The translations under genes and the position numbers were made by a program. This document shows, piece by piece, positions 52,593-61,074 of a stretch of 64,000 nucleotides of DNA. Position 1 is the stretch's first letter; each line of letters opens with the position of its first letter. The notes under the pieces were generated by a model. It saw only the letters and a list, made by a program, of their open reading frames with translations. It was not told the origin of the DNA and did not search any database. This stretch comes from Candidatus Hermodarchaeum yapensis (GTDB taxonomy: Archaea > Asgardarchaeota > Hermodarchaeia > Hermodarchaeales > Hermodarchaeaceae). Location: assembly GCA_016840405.1 (NCBI GenBank), contig JAEOSK010000006.1, forward strand, positions 1 through 64,000, written 5' to 3'.

Positions 52593-53033
52593 CTACCCGC
52601 GAACCAATGTGATTTCCATAGCTGAGACGTTTGCGACGTTACCCTCTGCAGTTTTGACTTGTTCAGTGGAGATCTCAATTTCGCTGACGACAAGATCAGT
52701 CATGAAGCGATTTCGGAGAACTTCAGCTACGTCCACAGCACGACTGATGGCTCGACCACGCGCTTTAATGACTAGTTCCTCTGGATTTCGATTGAGTTGA
52801 GTAACACAAGCAGTAATGTAGCTCATTAGCGGTTTACTGCCCACGAATACGACGCTTTCATCACGCCGGGTCTTTGGTGCTTCAGCCTTTTTCTCCTCTT
52901 TCTTCGGAGCTTTTTCGGCCTTTGGTTCTTCAGCTTTCACTTTTTCAGCTTTGGGTTCTTTTGCTTTGGGTTCTTTTGCTTTTTTAGTCTCAGCAGACTT
53001 GGATTCTTTAGACATTTTGGATATTTCCTCCAT
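52593..53033 (-). CDS. albA: DNA/RNA-binding protein Alba with N-terminal Lys/Glu/Ala/Pro-rich extension
   Basis: VFVGSKPLMSY, IKARGRAISRAVDVAE, NVSAMEITL. Confidence 0.95.
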   Translation of the reverse strand: MEEISKMSKESKSAETKKAKEPKAKEPKAEKVKAEEPKAEKAPKKEEKKAEAPKTRRDESVVFVGSKPLMSYITACVTQLNRNPEELVIKARGRAISRAVDVAEVLRNRFMTDLVVSEIEISTEQVKTAEGNVANVSAMEITLVRG

Positions 53034-54387: not shown

Positions 54388-54780
54388 ATGTCGAAAGAAT
54401 CTGATGAACTCAAACGCATCCGTGAACGGAAAATGCAAGCGTTAATCAAAGAGCAAGAGCGCCGTGAAGCCGTCGAATCATTAGTAGCTGATCGTGAAAA
54501 AGAAAGGGAACAACTGATTCAACAGTTATTCCTGCCGGATGCCGTGTCATATCTGGAAGAACTCAAGAAAACGAAACCGAAGATTGCAAATCGCATTGAA
54601 GATCTAGCCATTGCACTCTATTTGCGACAGCAACTGATTAACCGCATCCCCAAAACTGGCGTTATTATGGTTCAACGCAAATTAGAAGGAGTCGAACCAA
54701 AAATCACCGTTAAACGCCGCGGAGAAGATGAAGTAAGCTTTTATGAAGCTGTAAAAAAGGACCTTGCGGATAAGCACTGA
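54388..54780 (+). CDS. PDCD5/TFAR19-like protein
   Basis: DELKRIRERKMQAL, QLFLPDA..L..LK..KP.IA..IE, KITVKRR. Confidence 0.75.
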   Translation: MSKESDELKRIRERKMQALIKEQERREAVESLVADREKEREQLIQQLFLPDAVSYLEELKKTKPKIANRIEDLAIALYLRQQLINRIPKTGVIMVQRKLEGVEPKITVKRRGEDEVSFYEAVKKDLADKH

Positions 54781-54845: not shown

Positions 54846-55331
54846 TTAATAAGCTGCCGAGGGTACGGTCCCAGCGGAGGTTTCTTTTAAAACCCGACCT
54901 TGTTGATTCTGGAGAGCAACTCGAATCACACTTACTGCATTTGCACCCCAGACAGTTCGTTTGATATCTCGCTCCAGCATTTTCACTGCAGCACCATTGG
55001 TTAGCTCCTGAAACGCCGTTGGACCCATGTGGAGTAATAGATGAAGAACTGTACCTGATTCGTGGAACAAGGGATCAGGGGGGAGGTCAATTTCAGGGGT
55101 TTCAATGGATGAGGCAATGGTTGATGGTTTCCAATGGAAATAGCGTTTACGGGCTTCTCTTCGAATATCCACGAGCCCTGCGCAACATAACACTTCAATG
55201 ACATCGTAAAGACGTCGTTTTTCTTTAAGTGGCAATCCTAGATGCATGAGGAGTGTATTGGCCGTGTATTCCTGCTGAGGATGTTCCCGCAAAAAACTGA
55301 TTACATGGCTAGCAATTTCGCCTAATTTCAT
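54846..55331 (-). CDS. E2F/DP-like winged-helix DNA-binding protein
   Basis: LGEIASHVISFL...KRRLYDVIEVL..AGLV......YFHWK parallels the E2F pattern KRRIYDIxNVLxGxGLI.....I.WKG. ATG follows GAGG. Confidence 0.7.
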   Translation of the reverse strand: MKLGEIASHVISFLREHPQQEYTANTLLMHLGLPLKEKRRLYDVIEVLCCAGLVDIRREARKRYFHWKPSTIASSIETPEIDLPPDPLFHESGTVLHLLLHMGPTAFQELTNGAAVKMLERDIKRTVWGANAVSVIRVALQNQQGRVLKETSAGTVPSAAY

Positions 55332-55611
55332 GGTGATATCCTCGCCCAGTCCAAAGAATTTCAAGGGTTCGTGAGGGCCCACTCAGAGGAAGATGATAAG
55401 CCAACCTCATCACCTTTGGACCCAGTACTCACTTCCCTCGAAATCTAAGTGATGTTCCTATCTCTTCTCCCTTCTTGTTAAAAAGTGCTGGTAATACGTT
55501 TCGTGCCATTCGTCCAAATTGCAGTAACATTAGGAGTTCATTATAAATCAGGAAAAGGACAGAGCTTAAATCAGTAAATTCCCAGCTATTGGGTGGGGTT
55601 CTTCAGTCGGA

Positions 55612-56832
55612 ATGAGGAAATATCGTTTGTGGCAAATAGCAGTGTTTCTCCTCTTGATTTTCCTCGTAGCACTGCCTCCCCACCGAGTTAATGCCTTTCA
55701 ATATTTTCATTATTGGCGAGTAACCTTTTCTGGCTCGATAGAAGTCCATGGGAATGAATCGCTCCCAATTTCTTCTTACTGGAATTATATTGGAAATCGA
55801 TCATGGCAAACCTGCGAACAACTTTCTTTCAATATAGTTCATAACTCTGAAACTATCGTGCCCTCAGAGCTTGGCGAAGATATCGATGGCAACCCTAGGC
55901 TTAGTTTGGACATTGGACCTCTTTTAGAGCCAAATGACACCCTGCAATGGGAGGAGGAATGGCTATTTACTGTCTCAGATAGGCGACCTAGTCTCCCTCA
56001 AATTAGTATCGAACAGTCAGGGACCCTTGAAGAAGTTGAATCTCTATTAGGAACAGAAGATTACCTGCGTTATACTTCTGGGACAATGTTATGGAAGACT
56101 TGGAACCAGTCCTTGCTCGATCTTGCACAAGTTATCCAAGAGGGAATTCCAGAAGAGTCTCAAAATAATATTCTCGCCTTGGTTCATGCGTCGATTGCGT
56201 GGATTCAAGCAAATATCACAAGATCGACTGGGATAACTGAACCCCAATATCCTGAGGAGACCGTAGATAGTCAAATGGGCGATTGTGACGATCAGTCTAA
56301 TTTGCTTATTACACTTCTGCGGATTCACAATATACCCTGCTATCTCTTGACTGGTCACTGGTTTCAGAATGCTGCCCGAACGCATGGATATCTTTGGGGG
56401 TCCGTCGAAGAAGATGCCTATCTTTATGTTGATTGGCAGAATTCAAATGGTCATGGTTGGGCAATGGTTTATGTTCCACCCTGGGGATGGCTTCCGTTTG
56501 ATTTAATTGCAGCCGGACCAGGGAGTGACCCGATTGATACATACTACAATTCACTGTATGCTACTGGAGGACCATTTGTAACCTTATGGCAAATTTTAGC
56601 CAGCGATTATATTGCCGAACGGCGAACAGAAAAAGTTGAACTCTTTGCTCATCAACTCCATCGAGTGGAAGAAGAAGTATGGCATAGCTTTGGCTCACTG
56701 CCAATTATTGACAATCAGTACCTAACAACAAATGTTGCCACAATACTTGCCCTCACTACTACTCTAATATTATTAACCAGCCTTGTTGTAGTTGCGTATC
56801 GACGCCAACCGGAGGAGGACCCGGAACAGTGA
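55612..56832 (+). CDS. Transglutaminase-like protein, secreted and membrane anchored
   Basis: Signal peptide; GDCDD, GHGW and PFD catalytic triad motifs; C-terminal TM helix. Confidence 0.85.
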   Translation: MRKYRLWQIAVFLLLIFLVALPPHRVNAFQYFHYWRVTFSGSIEVHGNESLPISSYWNYIGNRSWQTCEQLSFNIVHNSETIVPSELGEDIDGNPRLSLDIGPLLEPNDTLQWEEEWLFTVSDRRPSLPQISIEQSGTLEEVESLLGTEDYLRYTSGTMLWKTWNQSLLDLAQVIQEGIPEESQNNILALVHASIAWIQANITRSTGITEPQYPEETVDSQMGDCDDQSNLLITLLRIHNIPCYLLTGHWFQNAARTHGYLWGSVEEDAYLYVDWQNSNGHGWAMVYVPPWGWLPFDLIAAGPGSDPIDTYYNSLYATGGPFVTLWQILASDYIAERRTEKVELFAHQLHRVEEEVWHSFGSLPIIDNQYLTTNVATILALTTTLILLTSLVVVAYRRQPEEDPEQ

Positions 56833-58598
56833 CCCCACCGGTAATGCCGAGTAAGCTGTATTCAGAGTACGTATTCGATGGTCATGAGGTTGCCCCCCGA
56901 TTTTGGGGACCAATCCCTCTTAATATGAAGGAAGCCGTGACCATCAGTCGTCCTCTAATCAAAGGATATCGCACCAATCAACAACCCCTCTTTTCCCCAG
57001 AGCGATTTAGCCGATTTTGTGATGCATTACGAAATATTCATCGAGAATATCAAGGACTAACTCCGAAGGTGAAGAAGAACTTAGACCTCCTAGAAGAACA
57101 GATAGCAGTTGTAGAGGCAGGACACCAACCAGCTTTGTTTGGTGGCCCCGGCTTTGTAATTAATAAACTCACCACCATTGCCCGACTCGCAACTTTACAG
57201 AACACCGCTCCCATCATGTTTGTGGGCGACCACGACCATGAACAAAAGGAATTAACCGTAATTCATTTGCCTAGCCCAGGACCCCGAGGAATCACATTCT
57301 CGATGCCTGTCCCCCGTGAATACAAACAATCACCTATGCATGTGTTACCACTCCCCACACAAACCTGGTTTAGCCAAGCACTAACGAAGATTTCGTCAAC
57401 CTATCATGAACTAATTGCAGGAATGCCCAAGAAACAAAAAAGCCAATACGAGAATCGAATCCAGACGCTTACCAGCATCCTTGAATCAACATTCACCCAG
57501 GCAAGCACTATTTCGGAGTGGAGTATACTCCTATGGATGCAGATCGTTAATCTCTCGCAGGATAGTGGAATCTTATTCCAAATTTTTTCGAATTCGAGCA
57601 TACGCCAACTCATGCTCCCAGCTTTTGAGTATCTATTGAAATCCCAAACCCGCTCTCGCCTCATCCAAGCCCTAAATCATAGTGGAAGCCAACTCAAAGA
57701 ATTTGGCTATACTCCAGGCATTGGTGTTCGCGCTGAAGATTACGTACCCTTTCATCTTGAATGTCCAACAAAGGGCTGCCACCGAACCCGTTTGGATCCT
57801 ACTCTCACTCACCCATCGACTAACAGCAAGGTTGAGATAAGCACCCGTTGTCCTAAATGTAGAACCGAGCATTCAATCCTGATAAAAGAAAAATCCCCGG
57901 ACCTCAGCCCTTGGGCTGACTTTCTTTCACCCCGAGTTGATACACGTGCGTTTCTCGTACAAAGCTATACACCCGTGATTCTACATGTGGGAGGCGCTGG
58001 CGAAACGGATTATCACGCCCAAGTGTCCCCCGCACTCGAAGCAATTCAAAGCATATCTCCAATCTTCTTTCGATATAATCGTCTTTATTATGGAAATCCT
58101 TGGACTCGACGCCAAGCACAGAAACTCTCGAGTGAAAACCTCAATTCACTTCAACCGAGTGAACTTCATTTCCATACCTCTGCAATAACAACTGGATATA
58201 ATGAAGACAATCCCGGAGTAACTCGTTCTCTCTTTGCAGCAAGTGGAGAATATATTCTAGAAACCGCAGCACAACTCATCTCAGATGAATCCCGACTTGA
58301 GAGGGAACGAATGGATACAATCATACAACAACGTGAAGCTACAGACCCAACATCCAAAGAAGAGCTGCAATCAAAGGTAGGTGTTCTAACACGTAGACGC
58401 CAACTAGTCCAAACCTATCTTTCACAAATGTTCGGTCGATATTCTCCCGAACGATTGGGACAAGAATCAAGTTTTGTATGGATAGACAGCGCCATTTCCC
58501 TTGGTCCCAATGAACTCTTCAATCGTCTTTCAGCGCATTATCAGCCGCTGACACCACCGGCTGCCACACACTATCTCTTTGATGAACCTAATGAATAG
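56829..58598 (+). CDS. bshC: Bacillithiol biosynthesis cysteine-adding enzyme BshC
   Basis: AGHQPALFGGP..INK, DHDH, SPRVDTR, VGGAGETDYHAQ, helical region, QE. Confidence 0.85.
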   Translation: MTPPVMPSKLYSEYVFDGHEVAPRFWGPIPLNMKEAVTISRPLIKGYRTNQQPLFSPERFSRFCDALRNIHREYQGLTPKVKKNLDLLEEQIAVVEAGHQPALFGGPGFVINKLTTIARLATLQNTAPIMFVGDHDHEQKELTVIHLPSPGPRGITFSMPVPREYKQSPMHVLPLPTQTWFSQALTKISSTYHELIAGMPKKQKSQYENRIQTLTSILESTFTQASTISEWSILLWMQIVNLSQDSGILFQIFSNSSIRQLMLPAFEYLLKSQTRSRLIQALNHSGSQLKEFGYTPGIGVRAEDYVPFHLECPTKGCHRTRLDPTLTHPSTNSKVEISTRCPKCRTEHSILIKEKSPDLSPWADFLSPRVDTRAFLVQSYTPVILHVGGAGETDYHAQVSPALEAIQSISPIFFRYNRLYYGNPWTRRQAQKLSSENLNSLQPSELHFHTSAITTGYNEDNPGVTRSLFAASGEYILETAAQLISDESRLERERMDTIIQQREATDPTSKEELQSKVGVLTRRRQLVQTYLSQMFGRYSPERLGQESSFVWIDSAISLGPNELFNRLSAHYQPLTPPAATHYLFDEPNE

Positions 58599-58652
58599 TA
58601 GGACATTGAAAGTATATTTTTACTAGACAAGAACATGGAGTGCCGAACAACC

Positions 58653-59165
58653 ATGAATTTGCTTGATATCATTAAAGGTCGACGTAGCATTCGCAAGTAC
58701 CAATCCCGGGAAGTAGAACAAGAGAAGATTGAAAAAATTCTCGAAGCTGCACAATGGGCACCTTCAGCGTCGAACCGCCAACCCTGGCATTTTATTGTAA
58801 TTCGGGACCCTGAGACACGCAAGAAGCTCGGTGCTATTCATTCACATGGCAGATTCATGAAAGAATCTCCAGTGGTAATTGCCGTGCTTGGAGACCCTGA
58901 AGCTCACGAAAAATATTTTCTATGCGACCCTCATCAAGCGATCCAGAATCTCATGCTTATGGCACATTGGCTTGAATTAGGAACTTGCTGGATGGGTGTT
59001 CGGGGAACTTCATTTGAACCAAAAATGAAAACACTCCTAGGTGTCCCAGATTCACTCCACCTAATTTGTACGATTTCTCTTGGATATCCGAATGAGGAAC
59101 GAACGAAAACACGCAAAGCATTATCAGAGATTGTATCCTGGGAACGCTACGGACAAAGAAAATGA
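58653..59165 (+). CDS. Nitroreductase family protein
   Basis: RRSIRKY, APSASNRQPW, QNLMLMA..LGTCW, LGYP. Confidence 0.92.
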   Translation: MNLLDIIKGRRSIRKYQSREVEQEKIEKILEAAQWAPSASNRQPWHFIVIRDPETRKKLGAIHSHGRFMKESPVVIAVLGDPEAHEKYFLCDPHQAIQNLMLMAHWLELGTCWMGVRGTSFEPKMKTLLGVPDSLHLICTISLGYPNEERTKTRKALSEIVSWERYGQRK

Positions 59166-59174
59166 ATTGTTAGT

Positions 59175-60281
59175 CTAGGTTTGAAGCACTTTTTTGTAGA
59201 TAGCTTCGTATTGTGGCACAACTTTGTCAACCGTATGGCGTTCAATAATGGTTTGACGGGCCTTCGTCCCAAGGTTGTTTGCTAGCGTTTGATCTGTGAG
59301 TATCGCATACAATTTGTCTGCCAACGCATCGATATCCCCAAAGGGCACCAGAAGCCCATTTTCCCCATTATCAATTATTTCTGGAATGCCACCCACTGCT
59401 GTTGAAACGACGGGTAATCCAGCACTCATTGCTTCTAAGAGTGATAATGGGGCGCCTTCGAGTTCGGAGGTTAAGGCAAAAGCGTAGCCACAGCGTAGAT
59501 ATTGATAGATGTCCCGTTTAAAACCGGGACATTTGACCCTGTCATTCAATTCGAACTCGCGAATCAAGCGGTCGACCTCTGGTCGTGTTGGACCATCACC
59601 AAGCAGAAGTAATTCGACATCATCCAGCTTATCAACAATCTGTGCAAATGCGGTTACTAAGTCTTGAACGCGCTTAACGGGACGAAAATTGGACACATGT
59701 ATCACTTGGCGTTTTCCATCATTTGTGGTAAATTCACACGCGTTTGGTTTGTATAATTCAGTGTCAGTAAAATTCGTGATTGGTTCAACCACACATCGTA
59801 TTCCCAAAGTTTGTTCAGCAGTTTGACAGATATGTTTAGTAACGCATGTAACTGCATTGGCACTCTCCACTGAATAGCGCGTAGCAAGTTGATAGGAAGG
59901 GTCTGCGCCCAGAGTATGCACATCAGAACCATGTAATGTTACAACATAGGGAATGCCCGTCATCTGCTGAGCCATATTAGCAGATACGGCATGCGGGATA
60001 GCATAGTGAACATGTAACAGGTCCAATTCATATTTTTGTGCGACTTGAACCATTCGAGATGCAAGAGCAACAGTGTAAGGAGGATATCGAAAGAGGGGGT
60101 ATTCTAGCACATCAACGAGATTTACAGTGACGTTCTCGTATTGACCTTCTTGGAGCTCGAATGGCACTTCGTAAGTGATAAAGTGCACTTCATGTCCTCG
60201 TTTACCAAGTTCGACCCCTAACCTTGTGGCCAGAAGTCCAGAACCTCCGACTCCAGGGTAACATGTAATTCCAATTCGCAT
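59175..60281 (-). CDS. bshA: N-acetylglucosaminyl-L-malate synthase BshA
   Basis: MRIGITCYPGVGGSG..AT.LG..L..RGHEVHFI, YPLFRYPPY, HVHYAIPHA, TLHGSD, HVSNFRPVKR. Confidence 0.93.
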   Translation of the reverse strand: MRIGITCYPGVGGSGLLATRLGVELGKRGHEVHFITYEVPFELQEGQYENVTVNLVDVLEYPLFRYPPYTVALASRMVQVAQKYELDLLHVHYAIPHAVSANMAQQMTGIPYVVTLHGSDVHTLGADPSYQLATRYSVESANAVTCVTKHICQTAEQTLGIRCVVEPITNFTDTELYKPNACEFTTNDGKRQVIHVSNFRPVKRVQDLVTAFAQIVDKLDDVELLLLGDGPTRPEVDRLIREFELNDRVKCPGFKRDIYQYLRCGYAFALTSELEGAPLSLLEAMSAGLPVVSTAVGGIPEIIDNGENGLLVPFGDIDALADKLYAILTDQTLANNLGTKARQTIIERHTVDKVVPQYEAIYKKVLQT

Positions 60282-60396
60282 TGTCTGTCGAAAGGCATCC
60301 TGTCTTTCCTACCCTTATGTGTTGCTCTATACGTCTGTTAACACTCCACCCTAAGACGAGGAAACCTTTAGGGAGAGAAACAGCGTAATATTCAGT

Positions 60397-61074
60397 ATGT
60401 CCGATTCCTCGTCTCACCACCTTCTAGTCGTGGCAGCCCACCCCGATGATGAAACATTCGGATGCGGAGGCACCATTGCCCTTGAAAGGGCAAACGGAAA
60501 CCCAGTTACAGTGTGCTGTCTTACAGGCACCGTCGCCCGACACCGAGAATTAGAAGCTGCCTGCGAAACGCTAGGTGCAAAAGTTATTGCACTGAAAGCC
60601 AAAGATATGACGCTAACAATTTCGGATGTAACTAAAACCCTCATTCCGATTATTCATGAGAAACGTCCAGAAGTCATCATTTCCCACAGTGCCGAGGATT
60701 ACCATCCAGATCATCGCATCGTCCATGAAGCAGTTCTCCGTGCAGCAGAATGGGCAGGTCATTCGACACAATATAAGAGTAAAGCTTGGCGCCCGAAGCG
60801 CCTTCTCTTCATGGAAATCAACAACCTTCTCTCCATGCCTACGGTGCTAGTCGATATTTCTGATTATATTGAGCTGAAAACTGATGCGATTTATGAATAT
60901 GCGAGTCAAATGAAAAAAACCGAGGAATACTATCTCTTCTTCAATTTACAGAAAGGACGATTACGGGGTCTGCAAGCAGGAACTGAATATGCTGAAGCCT
61001 TCCAAGAAATCCTCATGCCCATTCATGGACCTTTCTATTCCCCGACACCAACTGTCAAAACAATATTTTCCTAA
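60397..61074 (+). CDS. bshB: PIG-L family deacetylase (BshB-like)
   Basis: AHPDDETFGCGGT, HPDH, VDIS, SQ, AEAF; divergent from bshA. Confidence 0.8.
   Translation: MSDSSSHHLLVVAAHPDDETFGCGGTIALERANGNPVTVCCLTGTVARHRELEAACETLGAKVIALKAKDMTLTISDVTKTLIPIIHEKRPEVIISHSAEDYHPDHRIVHEAVLRAAEWAGHSTQYKSKAWRPKRLLFMEINNLLSMPTVLVDISDYIELKTDAIYEYASQMKKTEEYYLFFNLQKGRLRGLQAGTEYAEAFQEILMPIHGPFYSPTPTVKTIFS

Follow-up and report, generated by a model that had tools for sequence, protein, structure and literature searches.

An E2F/DP-like winged-helix protein of Hermodarchaeia with a lineage-specific C-terminal domain

The gene and its surroundings

The window, that is, the whole stretch of 64,000 nucleotides of Candidatus Hermodarchaeum yapensis DNA that was analysed, carries at 54846-55331 an open reading frame for a protein of 161 aa, which a sequence-only reading had picked out without giving its strand. 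It lies on the minus strand, and its translation is identical, letter for letter, to the one reported in that reading. The genome to which it belongs (G000) comprises 2.7 Mb with 44.7% GC and is 86% complete. The neighbours of the gene are Alba, an M28 peptidase, a convergent PDCD5-like gene, a divergent transglutaminase-like gene and a bshC/A/B cluster. At 55612-61074 the transglutaminase-like gene is accompanied by bshC, a nitroreductase gene, bshA and bshB, a synteny observed in Hermod-type and not in Odin-type genomes. The features of the locus are the following.

54388-54780, plus strand: divergent paralogue of PDCD5 (dsDNA_bind, PF01984), tail-to-tail with the E2F-like gene, with 65 bp between the stops
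54846-55331, minus strand: coding sequence of the E2F/DP-like protein of 161 aa (stop codon 54846-54848; homologues at 57-94% identity; overall dN/dS 0.07)
54876-55073, minus strand: lineage-specific C-terminal alpha/beta domain, residues 87-152 (conservation in alignments; model; dN/dS 0.06)
55074-55127, minus strand: Pro-rich variable linker, residues 69-86 (pLDDT <50 for residues 72-85; dN/dS 0.35; variable in alignment)
55128-55331, minus strand: N-terminal winged-helix DNA-binding domain (E2F_TDP), residues 1-68 (Pfam PF02319; AF2; PDB profile matches)
55203-55217, minus strand: RRxYD codons, R39-R40-L41-Y42-D43, in the recognition helix (read from the sequence)
55339-55343, minus strand: Shine-Dalgarno-like GAGGA, 7 nt 5' of the ATG
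55477-55497, minus strand: conserved upstream block GTAWTACCAGCNYTTTTTAAC, ca. 150 nt before the ATG (footprint over five Hermod-type loci)

The true start is the ATG at 55329-55331, as indicated by the GAGGA upstream of it and by the presence of MKL at the aligned position in all Asgard homologues, in which initiation is often at GTG or TTG. AGAGG is kept in the Shine-Dalgarno region of the five orthologous loci, and the full GAGGA in four of them, the fifth (L037) having GAGGC. A longer, GTG-started ORF of 178 aa is unsupported, since the sister genus has an in-frame TGA immediately 5' of the ATG. Further upstream, the GTAWTACCAGCNYTTTTTAAC block is a candidate promoter or operator of the E2F-like gene, as judged by its conservation. 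At the five loci, the upstream region contains a GTAWTAC palindrome and, after it, a T-rich box, and a similar block, GGTAATACT, is conserved upstream of cdrS (G000:C3). In a genome-wide count GTAWTAC was not enriched in intergenic DNA, so that conservation of these blocks may be due to chance.

Homologues with identities of 57-94% (n=33) all carry PF02319 as well as both domains. Over 13 orthologues, at a dS of ca. 1.5, the winged helix has a median dN/dS of 0.04 and the C-terminal domain one of 0.06, both being under strong purifying selection; the linker has 0.35.

Assignment of the winged helix to the E2F_TDP family

The sequence-only reading had described an RRxYD recognition helix with Glu in place of Asn, a GL(I/V) stretch and a wing Trp, followed by a linker rich in Pro and by another small domain, and had taken the protein for an E2F/DP homolog, naming the PF02319 profile as the check and TrmB as the alternative. 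All of these elements are present, including R39-R40-L41-Y42-D43, a Glu at position 46, where E2F and DP carry Asn, a GLV stretch and W67, together with the linker and the second domain downstream. The homology is supported both by PF02319 and by reciprocal profile matches in the PDB. The E2F_TDP profile matches residues 3-67 with 33.4 bits, above its gathering cutoff of 25.7 (E 3.7e-8; model positions 5-63 of 65), and in a six-frame search it rendered a single match in the genome, with 34.9 bits. TrmB (PF01978), the second-best Pfam match, stayed below its gathering score (13.4 bits against a cutoff of 25.6), and the 161-aa protein matched no NCBIfam model.

When the protein served as a single-sequence query, E2F4 ranked first among the PDB sequences. 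A profile built from the winged helices of 29 divergent Asgard sequences matched E2F8 (1.6e-8), E2F4 (1.2e-7) and, marginally, DP2 (0.019), and a profile of the Asgard coiled-coil subfamily described below matched E2F8 (2.7e-12), E2F4 (7.7e-8) and, again marginally, DP2 (6.5e-3); among 177,635 distinct PDB sequences, no MarR, TrmB, ArsR or other winged-helix chain was matched by the Asgard profiles at E<=10. The alignment of the 29 sequences, which includes subfamilies that share only ca. 30% identity, has no invariant columns other than the four of RRxYD (R, R, Y and D); W67, the wing Trp, is nearly invariant across the Asgard subfamilies. The RRxYD residues make base-specific contacts, at the CGCG core, in the E2F4-DP2-DNA structure (1CF7).

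The AF2 model of the winged helix has a pLDDT of ca. 85-94 and comprises helices at residues 3-16, 24-31 and 35-50 and strands at 54-59 and 62-67. In fold comparisons (Foldseek, VIA), 1cf7_A was found with a TM score of 0.73 but at rank 50, with Hop2 and Z-alpha scoring higher and ArsR and Fur domains equal or better. Because the winged helix is a common fold, the fold search does not discriminate in favour of E2F, and membership in the E2F/DP family was therefore made to rest on sequence profiles and not on structure.

It could be argued that the protein is a generic archaeal regulator of the TrmB/MarR type, whose RRxYD-like helix arose by convergence and which would not be homologous to E2F/DP. 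TrmB is indeed the second-best Pfam match, and it reaches 25.2-25.8 bits in two members of the coiled-coil subfamily; generic winged helices are structural neighbours that score equal to or above E2F4; and the similarity to E2F is concentrated in the recognition helix, of which ca. 20 residues carry much of the profile match. However, the E2F4 alignment extends over residues 3-68 and so over the entire domain, every Asgard member tested scores above the E2F_TDP cutoff and at or below that of TrmB, and the Asgard profiles match only E2F8, E2F4 and DP2 despite the hundreds of MarR, ArsR and TrmB chains in the PDB. We consider convergence highly improbable. The archaeal TrmB (PF01978), MarR and Lrp/AsnC regulators resemble the protein in their small size and in combining an N-terminal winged helix with a C-terminal domain, which serves in oligomerisation or effector binding in those proteins, but no PDB member of these groups is matched by the Asgard profiles, and the C-terminal domain of the window's protein matches none of their effector domains. 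By profile, the N-terminal winged helix is a member of the E2F_TDP family rather than of TrmB, MarR or ArsR.

Distribution and architectures in Asgard archaea

Of 400 genomes of the phylum, 136 have PF02319 above its cutoff, usually in one copy per genome; they represent 40 of 85 genera. The 14 control genomes gave no match at E<=0.001. The full-length architecture of the window's protein is present in its own genome and in 16 of the 18 other genomes of its family, as well as in all seven genomes of two families with small genomes that are assigned to Odinarchaeia by their source names. Homologues came in all cases from Asgard MAGs, those recorded as Hermodarchaeia or Hermodarchaeota being YT2_032, YT1_028, FT1_005, YT1_014 and H02S_Hermod_124.

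Most Asgard members of E2F_TDP are proteins of ca. 170-183 aa in which the winged helix is followed by a heptad-rich helix and then by a small beta-rich domain, as exemplified by L030:1114-1662 (minus strand), L008:1144-1692 (minus strand), L031, L015, L026 and P0038; some members of ca. 120 aa lack the heptad-rich helix. The order of helix and beta-rich domain recalls the layout of DNA-binding domain, coiled coil and marked box of eukaryotic E2F/DP. No member of this coiled-coil subfamily matched the dimerisation domains PF16421 or PF08781, and no CC-MB chain of the PDB was listed at E<=10, so that homology of the subfamily to the CC-MB module is not detectable by sequence. Members of the subfamily (e.g. 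L030, L008 and P0038 of Baldrarchaeia; ca. 170-183 aa) share with the window's protein a homologous winged helix, the MKL start and RRxYD, whereas the C-terminal halves are unrelated in sequence: where the subfamily has its heptad-rich helix and beta-rich domain, the window's protein has a Pro-rich linker and a small alpha/beta domain. Accordingly, hhalign aligned the window's family with the coiled-coil subfamily only over the winged helix (98% probability, E 1e-13, 70 columns). The window's protein further differs from most Asgard members by a 3-residue insertion before KRR.

The C-terminal domain is restricted to the window's own family (f1) and the two Odin-type families (f26 and f27). Modelled alone from 29 sequences, it has a mean pLDDT of 80, with a core above 90, and it has no sequence match and, in the PDB, no fold match: Foldseek gave E>1, and the best result of VIA over 48,161 chains, with SEA-like or ferredoxin-like pieces, was a Z of 3.4. 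Conservation is highest in a charged helix, M-x-E/R-R-D-x-K-R, common to the Hermod-type and Odin-type forms. A resemblance of the C-terminal part to DP-family clusters (Atlas score 0.77) was discarded, being below the reliability line and having no Pfam or hhalign support. It is only in its DNA-binding domain that the 161-aa protein is E2F-like.

A deep profile search over 1.8 billion representatives rendered 10 matches, which are Asgard proteins and five small tandem-domain proteins. The latter (P0039-P0043), which come next after the Asgard proteins, are metagenomic, measure 195-248 aa, carry two E2F_TDP domains in an E2F7/8/DEL-like layout and are encoded on contigs of up to 73 kb; they were not found in the viral contigs scanned.

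It could also be the case that the domain is a true E2F/DP domain acquired by Asgard archaea from eukaryotes through horizontal transfer, in which case it would say nothing about the state before eukaryotes. The distribution is patchy enough to invite this explanation, since several large Asgard families are almost or completely devoid of PF02319 (e.g. 0 of 31, 0 of 22 and 3 of 135 genomes). Against it, the 40 genera with the domain are spread over many Asgard classes, the subfamilies are deeply diverged yet have the MKL start in common, accessory domains of the eukaryotic type are missing, the synteny with a PDCD5-like gene is kept between two classes, and Eme et al. 2023 (PMC10307638) infer inheritance from Asgard archaea. 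Transfer from eukaryotes thus seems very unlikely to us.

Partner gene, candidate sites and relation to eukaryotic E2F/DP

The tail-to-tail PDCD5-like gene is the only neighbour kept beside the E2F-like gene between Hermod-type and Odin-type genomes, whose E2F-like proteins are ca. 25% identical; it scores 24-25 bits with PF01984 in the window and 26-37 bits in its orthologues. Other loci with this arrangement are G095:C21:200796-201041, G108:C119:8236-8475, G300:C2:73843-74142 and G303:C1:19863-20162. A canonical PDCD5 (ca. 90 bits) is encoded elsewhere in every genome checked, in the window's own genome at G000:C20:4609-4911. In two genomes with the coiled-coil type, 7-11 kb separate the PDCD5-like paralogue from the E2F-like gene, and in three others the two are far apart. 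The conserved tail-to-tail pairing suggests that the E2F-like protein and this putatively DNA-binding PDCD5 paralogue work together.

Alba genes were observed within 1-2 kb of E2F-like genes in the window (52593-53033) and in three other, unrelated Asgard lineages (L022 599-1183, L023 2001-2585, L005 2935-3162, and L010 and L011 17-249). A 123-aa form of the E2F-like protein is flanked by two tandem copies of Alba, and the Alba of the window has a Lys/Glu-rich N-terminal tail of ca. 55 residues.

The E2F_TDP gene is present in a single copy in the 86%-complete genome of the window and likewise in the closed Odin-type genome G303, and this predicts a homodimer. The CC-MB (PF16421) and DP (PF08781) dimerisation domains are absent from the protein and were not found above cutoff in the 86%-complete genome, in which the best score for the Rb pocket was 12.4 bits (RB_A; cutoff 25). 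Since this genome has no second E2F/DP domain and none of the CC-MB, DP and RB_A domains, the eukaryotic circuit of heterodimer and Rb is taken to be absent. The 161-aa protein would be a sequence-specific regulator, probably a homodimer, that binds DNA through helix 3 and regulates transcription without the Rb/cyclin layer. In the simplest model, its private C-terminal domain would mediate dimerisation, taking the place of the eukaryotic module of coiled coil and marked box, and the likely site of such a homodimer would be a short palindrome with a GC core.

Words of the E2F type occur in the genome near genes for replication and division. In the region G000:C3:43806-44362 upstream of orc1/cdc6, which is likely a replication origin, a classical ORB (GTTCCAGTGGAAAC) is accompanied by several GTTCACA repeats, and AACGCGCC is flanked by the two arms, GTTCACAATT/AATTGTGAAC, of a perfect inverted repeat. 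Here, 149 nt before orc1/cdc6 (G000:C3 around 44213), AACGCGCCAA lies inside a perfect 10-bp inverted repeat in ORB-rich DNA. The palindrome TTGGCGCCAA is found ca. 440 nt before ftsZ and ca. 250 nt before cdrS (G000:C3 around 7449). The SGCGCCAA words at orc1/cdc6 and ftsZ keep their positions in three genomes of the genus, with otherwise diverged sequence around them. GCGCCAA-type words upstream of orc1/cdc6 and in the intergenic region between the tRNA gene and cdrS-ftsZ are, on these grounds, tentative candidate targets. Other roles can be envisaged for both: the word at orc1 directly adjoins an ORB-like GTGAAC repeat and may thus belong to an Orc1 site, and TTGGCGCCAA precedes a divergent tRNA gene by ca. 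60 nt and may thus serve the tRNA promoter.

Genome-wide counts gave no enrichment of such words in intergenic DNA, either for SGCGCSAA (28 observed against 22.9 expected), for TTTSSCGC (ratio of intergenic to coding density, 0.85) or for SGCGCS and TTSGCGCSAA. The genes adjoining the remaining intergenic words of this type have no relation to replication or division and form no coherent set, and no such word was found upstream of the E2F-like gene itself. Neither word was found at the orc1 or ftsZ loci of the Odin-type genome, and orc1 and ftsZ were not found in the incomplete assemblies of the sister genus. This negative evidence tempers the idea of a regulon, and a real E2F-like regulon in the window's own genome is doubtful. 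Unlikelier still is the complete scheme, in which a factor of the Hermod/Odin form, pairing with itself through its private C-terminal domain, would bind, with its PDCD5-like neighbour, GCGCCAA-type palindromes at the orc1/cdc6 origin and at cdrS-ftsZ.

A different role, as a chromatin or replication-associated protein that binds the origin or bulk DNA together with the PDCD5-like protein and perhaps Alba, without being a gene-specific factor, seems to us improbable. It would agree with the conserved pairing with a dsDNA_bind paralogue, with the repeated proximity of Alba and with the one conserved GCGCCAA word within the ORB-rich origin region. However, the RRxYD residues, which are established as base-specific in E2F4-DP2, are invariant here, the gene is single-copy and the high-abundance features that mark chromatin proteins are not in evidence, and the linkage to Alba may merely reflect a conserved housekeeping neighbourhood. 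We favour, with a probability of about four in five, the reading of the protein as a small, single-copy DNA-binding regulator that represents Hermodarchaeia in the published Asgard E2F/DP-like family.

In eukaryotes, factors of the E2F/DP family drive the G1/S switch, and to our knowledge no Asgard E2F-like protein has been characterised. The eukaryotic proteins (PDB 1CF7; the tandem domains of E2F8, 4YO2) have in common with the window's protein the winged helix, RRxYD, the hydrophobic VL/GL positions and the wing Trp, and the proteins of 1CF7 and 4YO2 are the best and the only significant PDB sequence matches of its E2F-like domain. Unlike them, the window's protein has only 161 aa, begins with the domain at residue 1, carries Glu for the Asn of RRxYDxxN and is devoid of coiled coil, marked box, DP partner and transactivation or Rb-binding tail, in a genome (86% complete) in which no Rb was found.

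The E2F/DP reading is correct but already published, the Hermodarchaeia version included. Asgard homologues of E2F/DP were described by Eme et al. 2023 (Nature 618:992, PMC10307638) in Supplementary Information 4.1.5 (ESP 'E2F/DP', PF02319, arCOG02749), and the ESP table of that work lists Hermodarchaeia_WORB2_22320 under PF02319. The family and the lineage are the same as here, and the Hermodarchaeota MAGs of that work (YT2_032, YT1_028, FT1_005 and YT1_014) contain close homologues of the window's protein. According to those authors, the DNA-binding domain is conserved with its base-contact residues, homology is confined to it and no regulator-binding domain is present, a description with which the window's protein agrees; they proposed that the eukaryotic E2F/DP proteins arose by duplication of an Asgard gene. 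A 2024 review also states that Asgard genomes encode E2F homologues, and the main text makes no mention of E2F in either the 2021 or the 2023 paper. Whereas the homologues were treated as one group by Eme et al., the Hermod-type and Odin-type proteins constitute in our analysis a separate architecture with its own C-terminal domain, and the pairing with a PDCD5-like gene is not mentioned in the literature that we found on Asgard E2F/DP.

An archaeal relative of E2F/DP bears on the origin of the transcriptional control of the eukaryotic cell cycle, a point already made in the literature. What is added here for the Hermod/Odin form is its two-domain layout, with a C-terminal domain that has no fold match, its single-copy state, a PDCD5-like partner gene and two conserved candidate sites. 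If a self-pairing factor of this kind did act at orc1/cdc6 and cdrS-ftsZ, E2F-type control of replication and division would be older than eukaryotes and than the Rb/cyclin layer.
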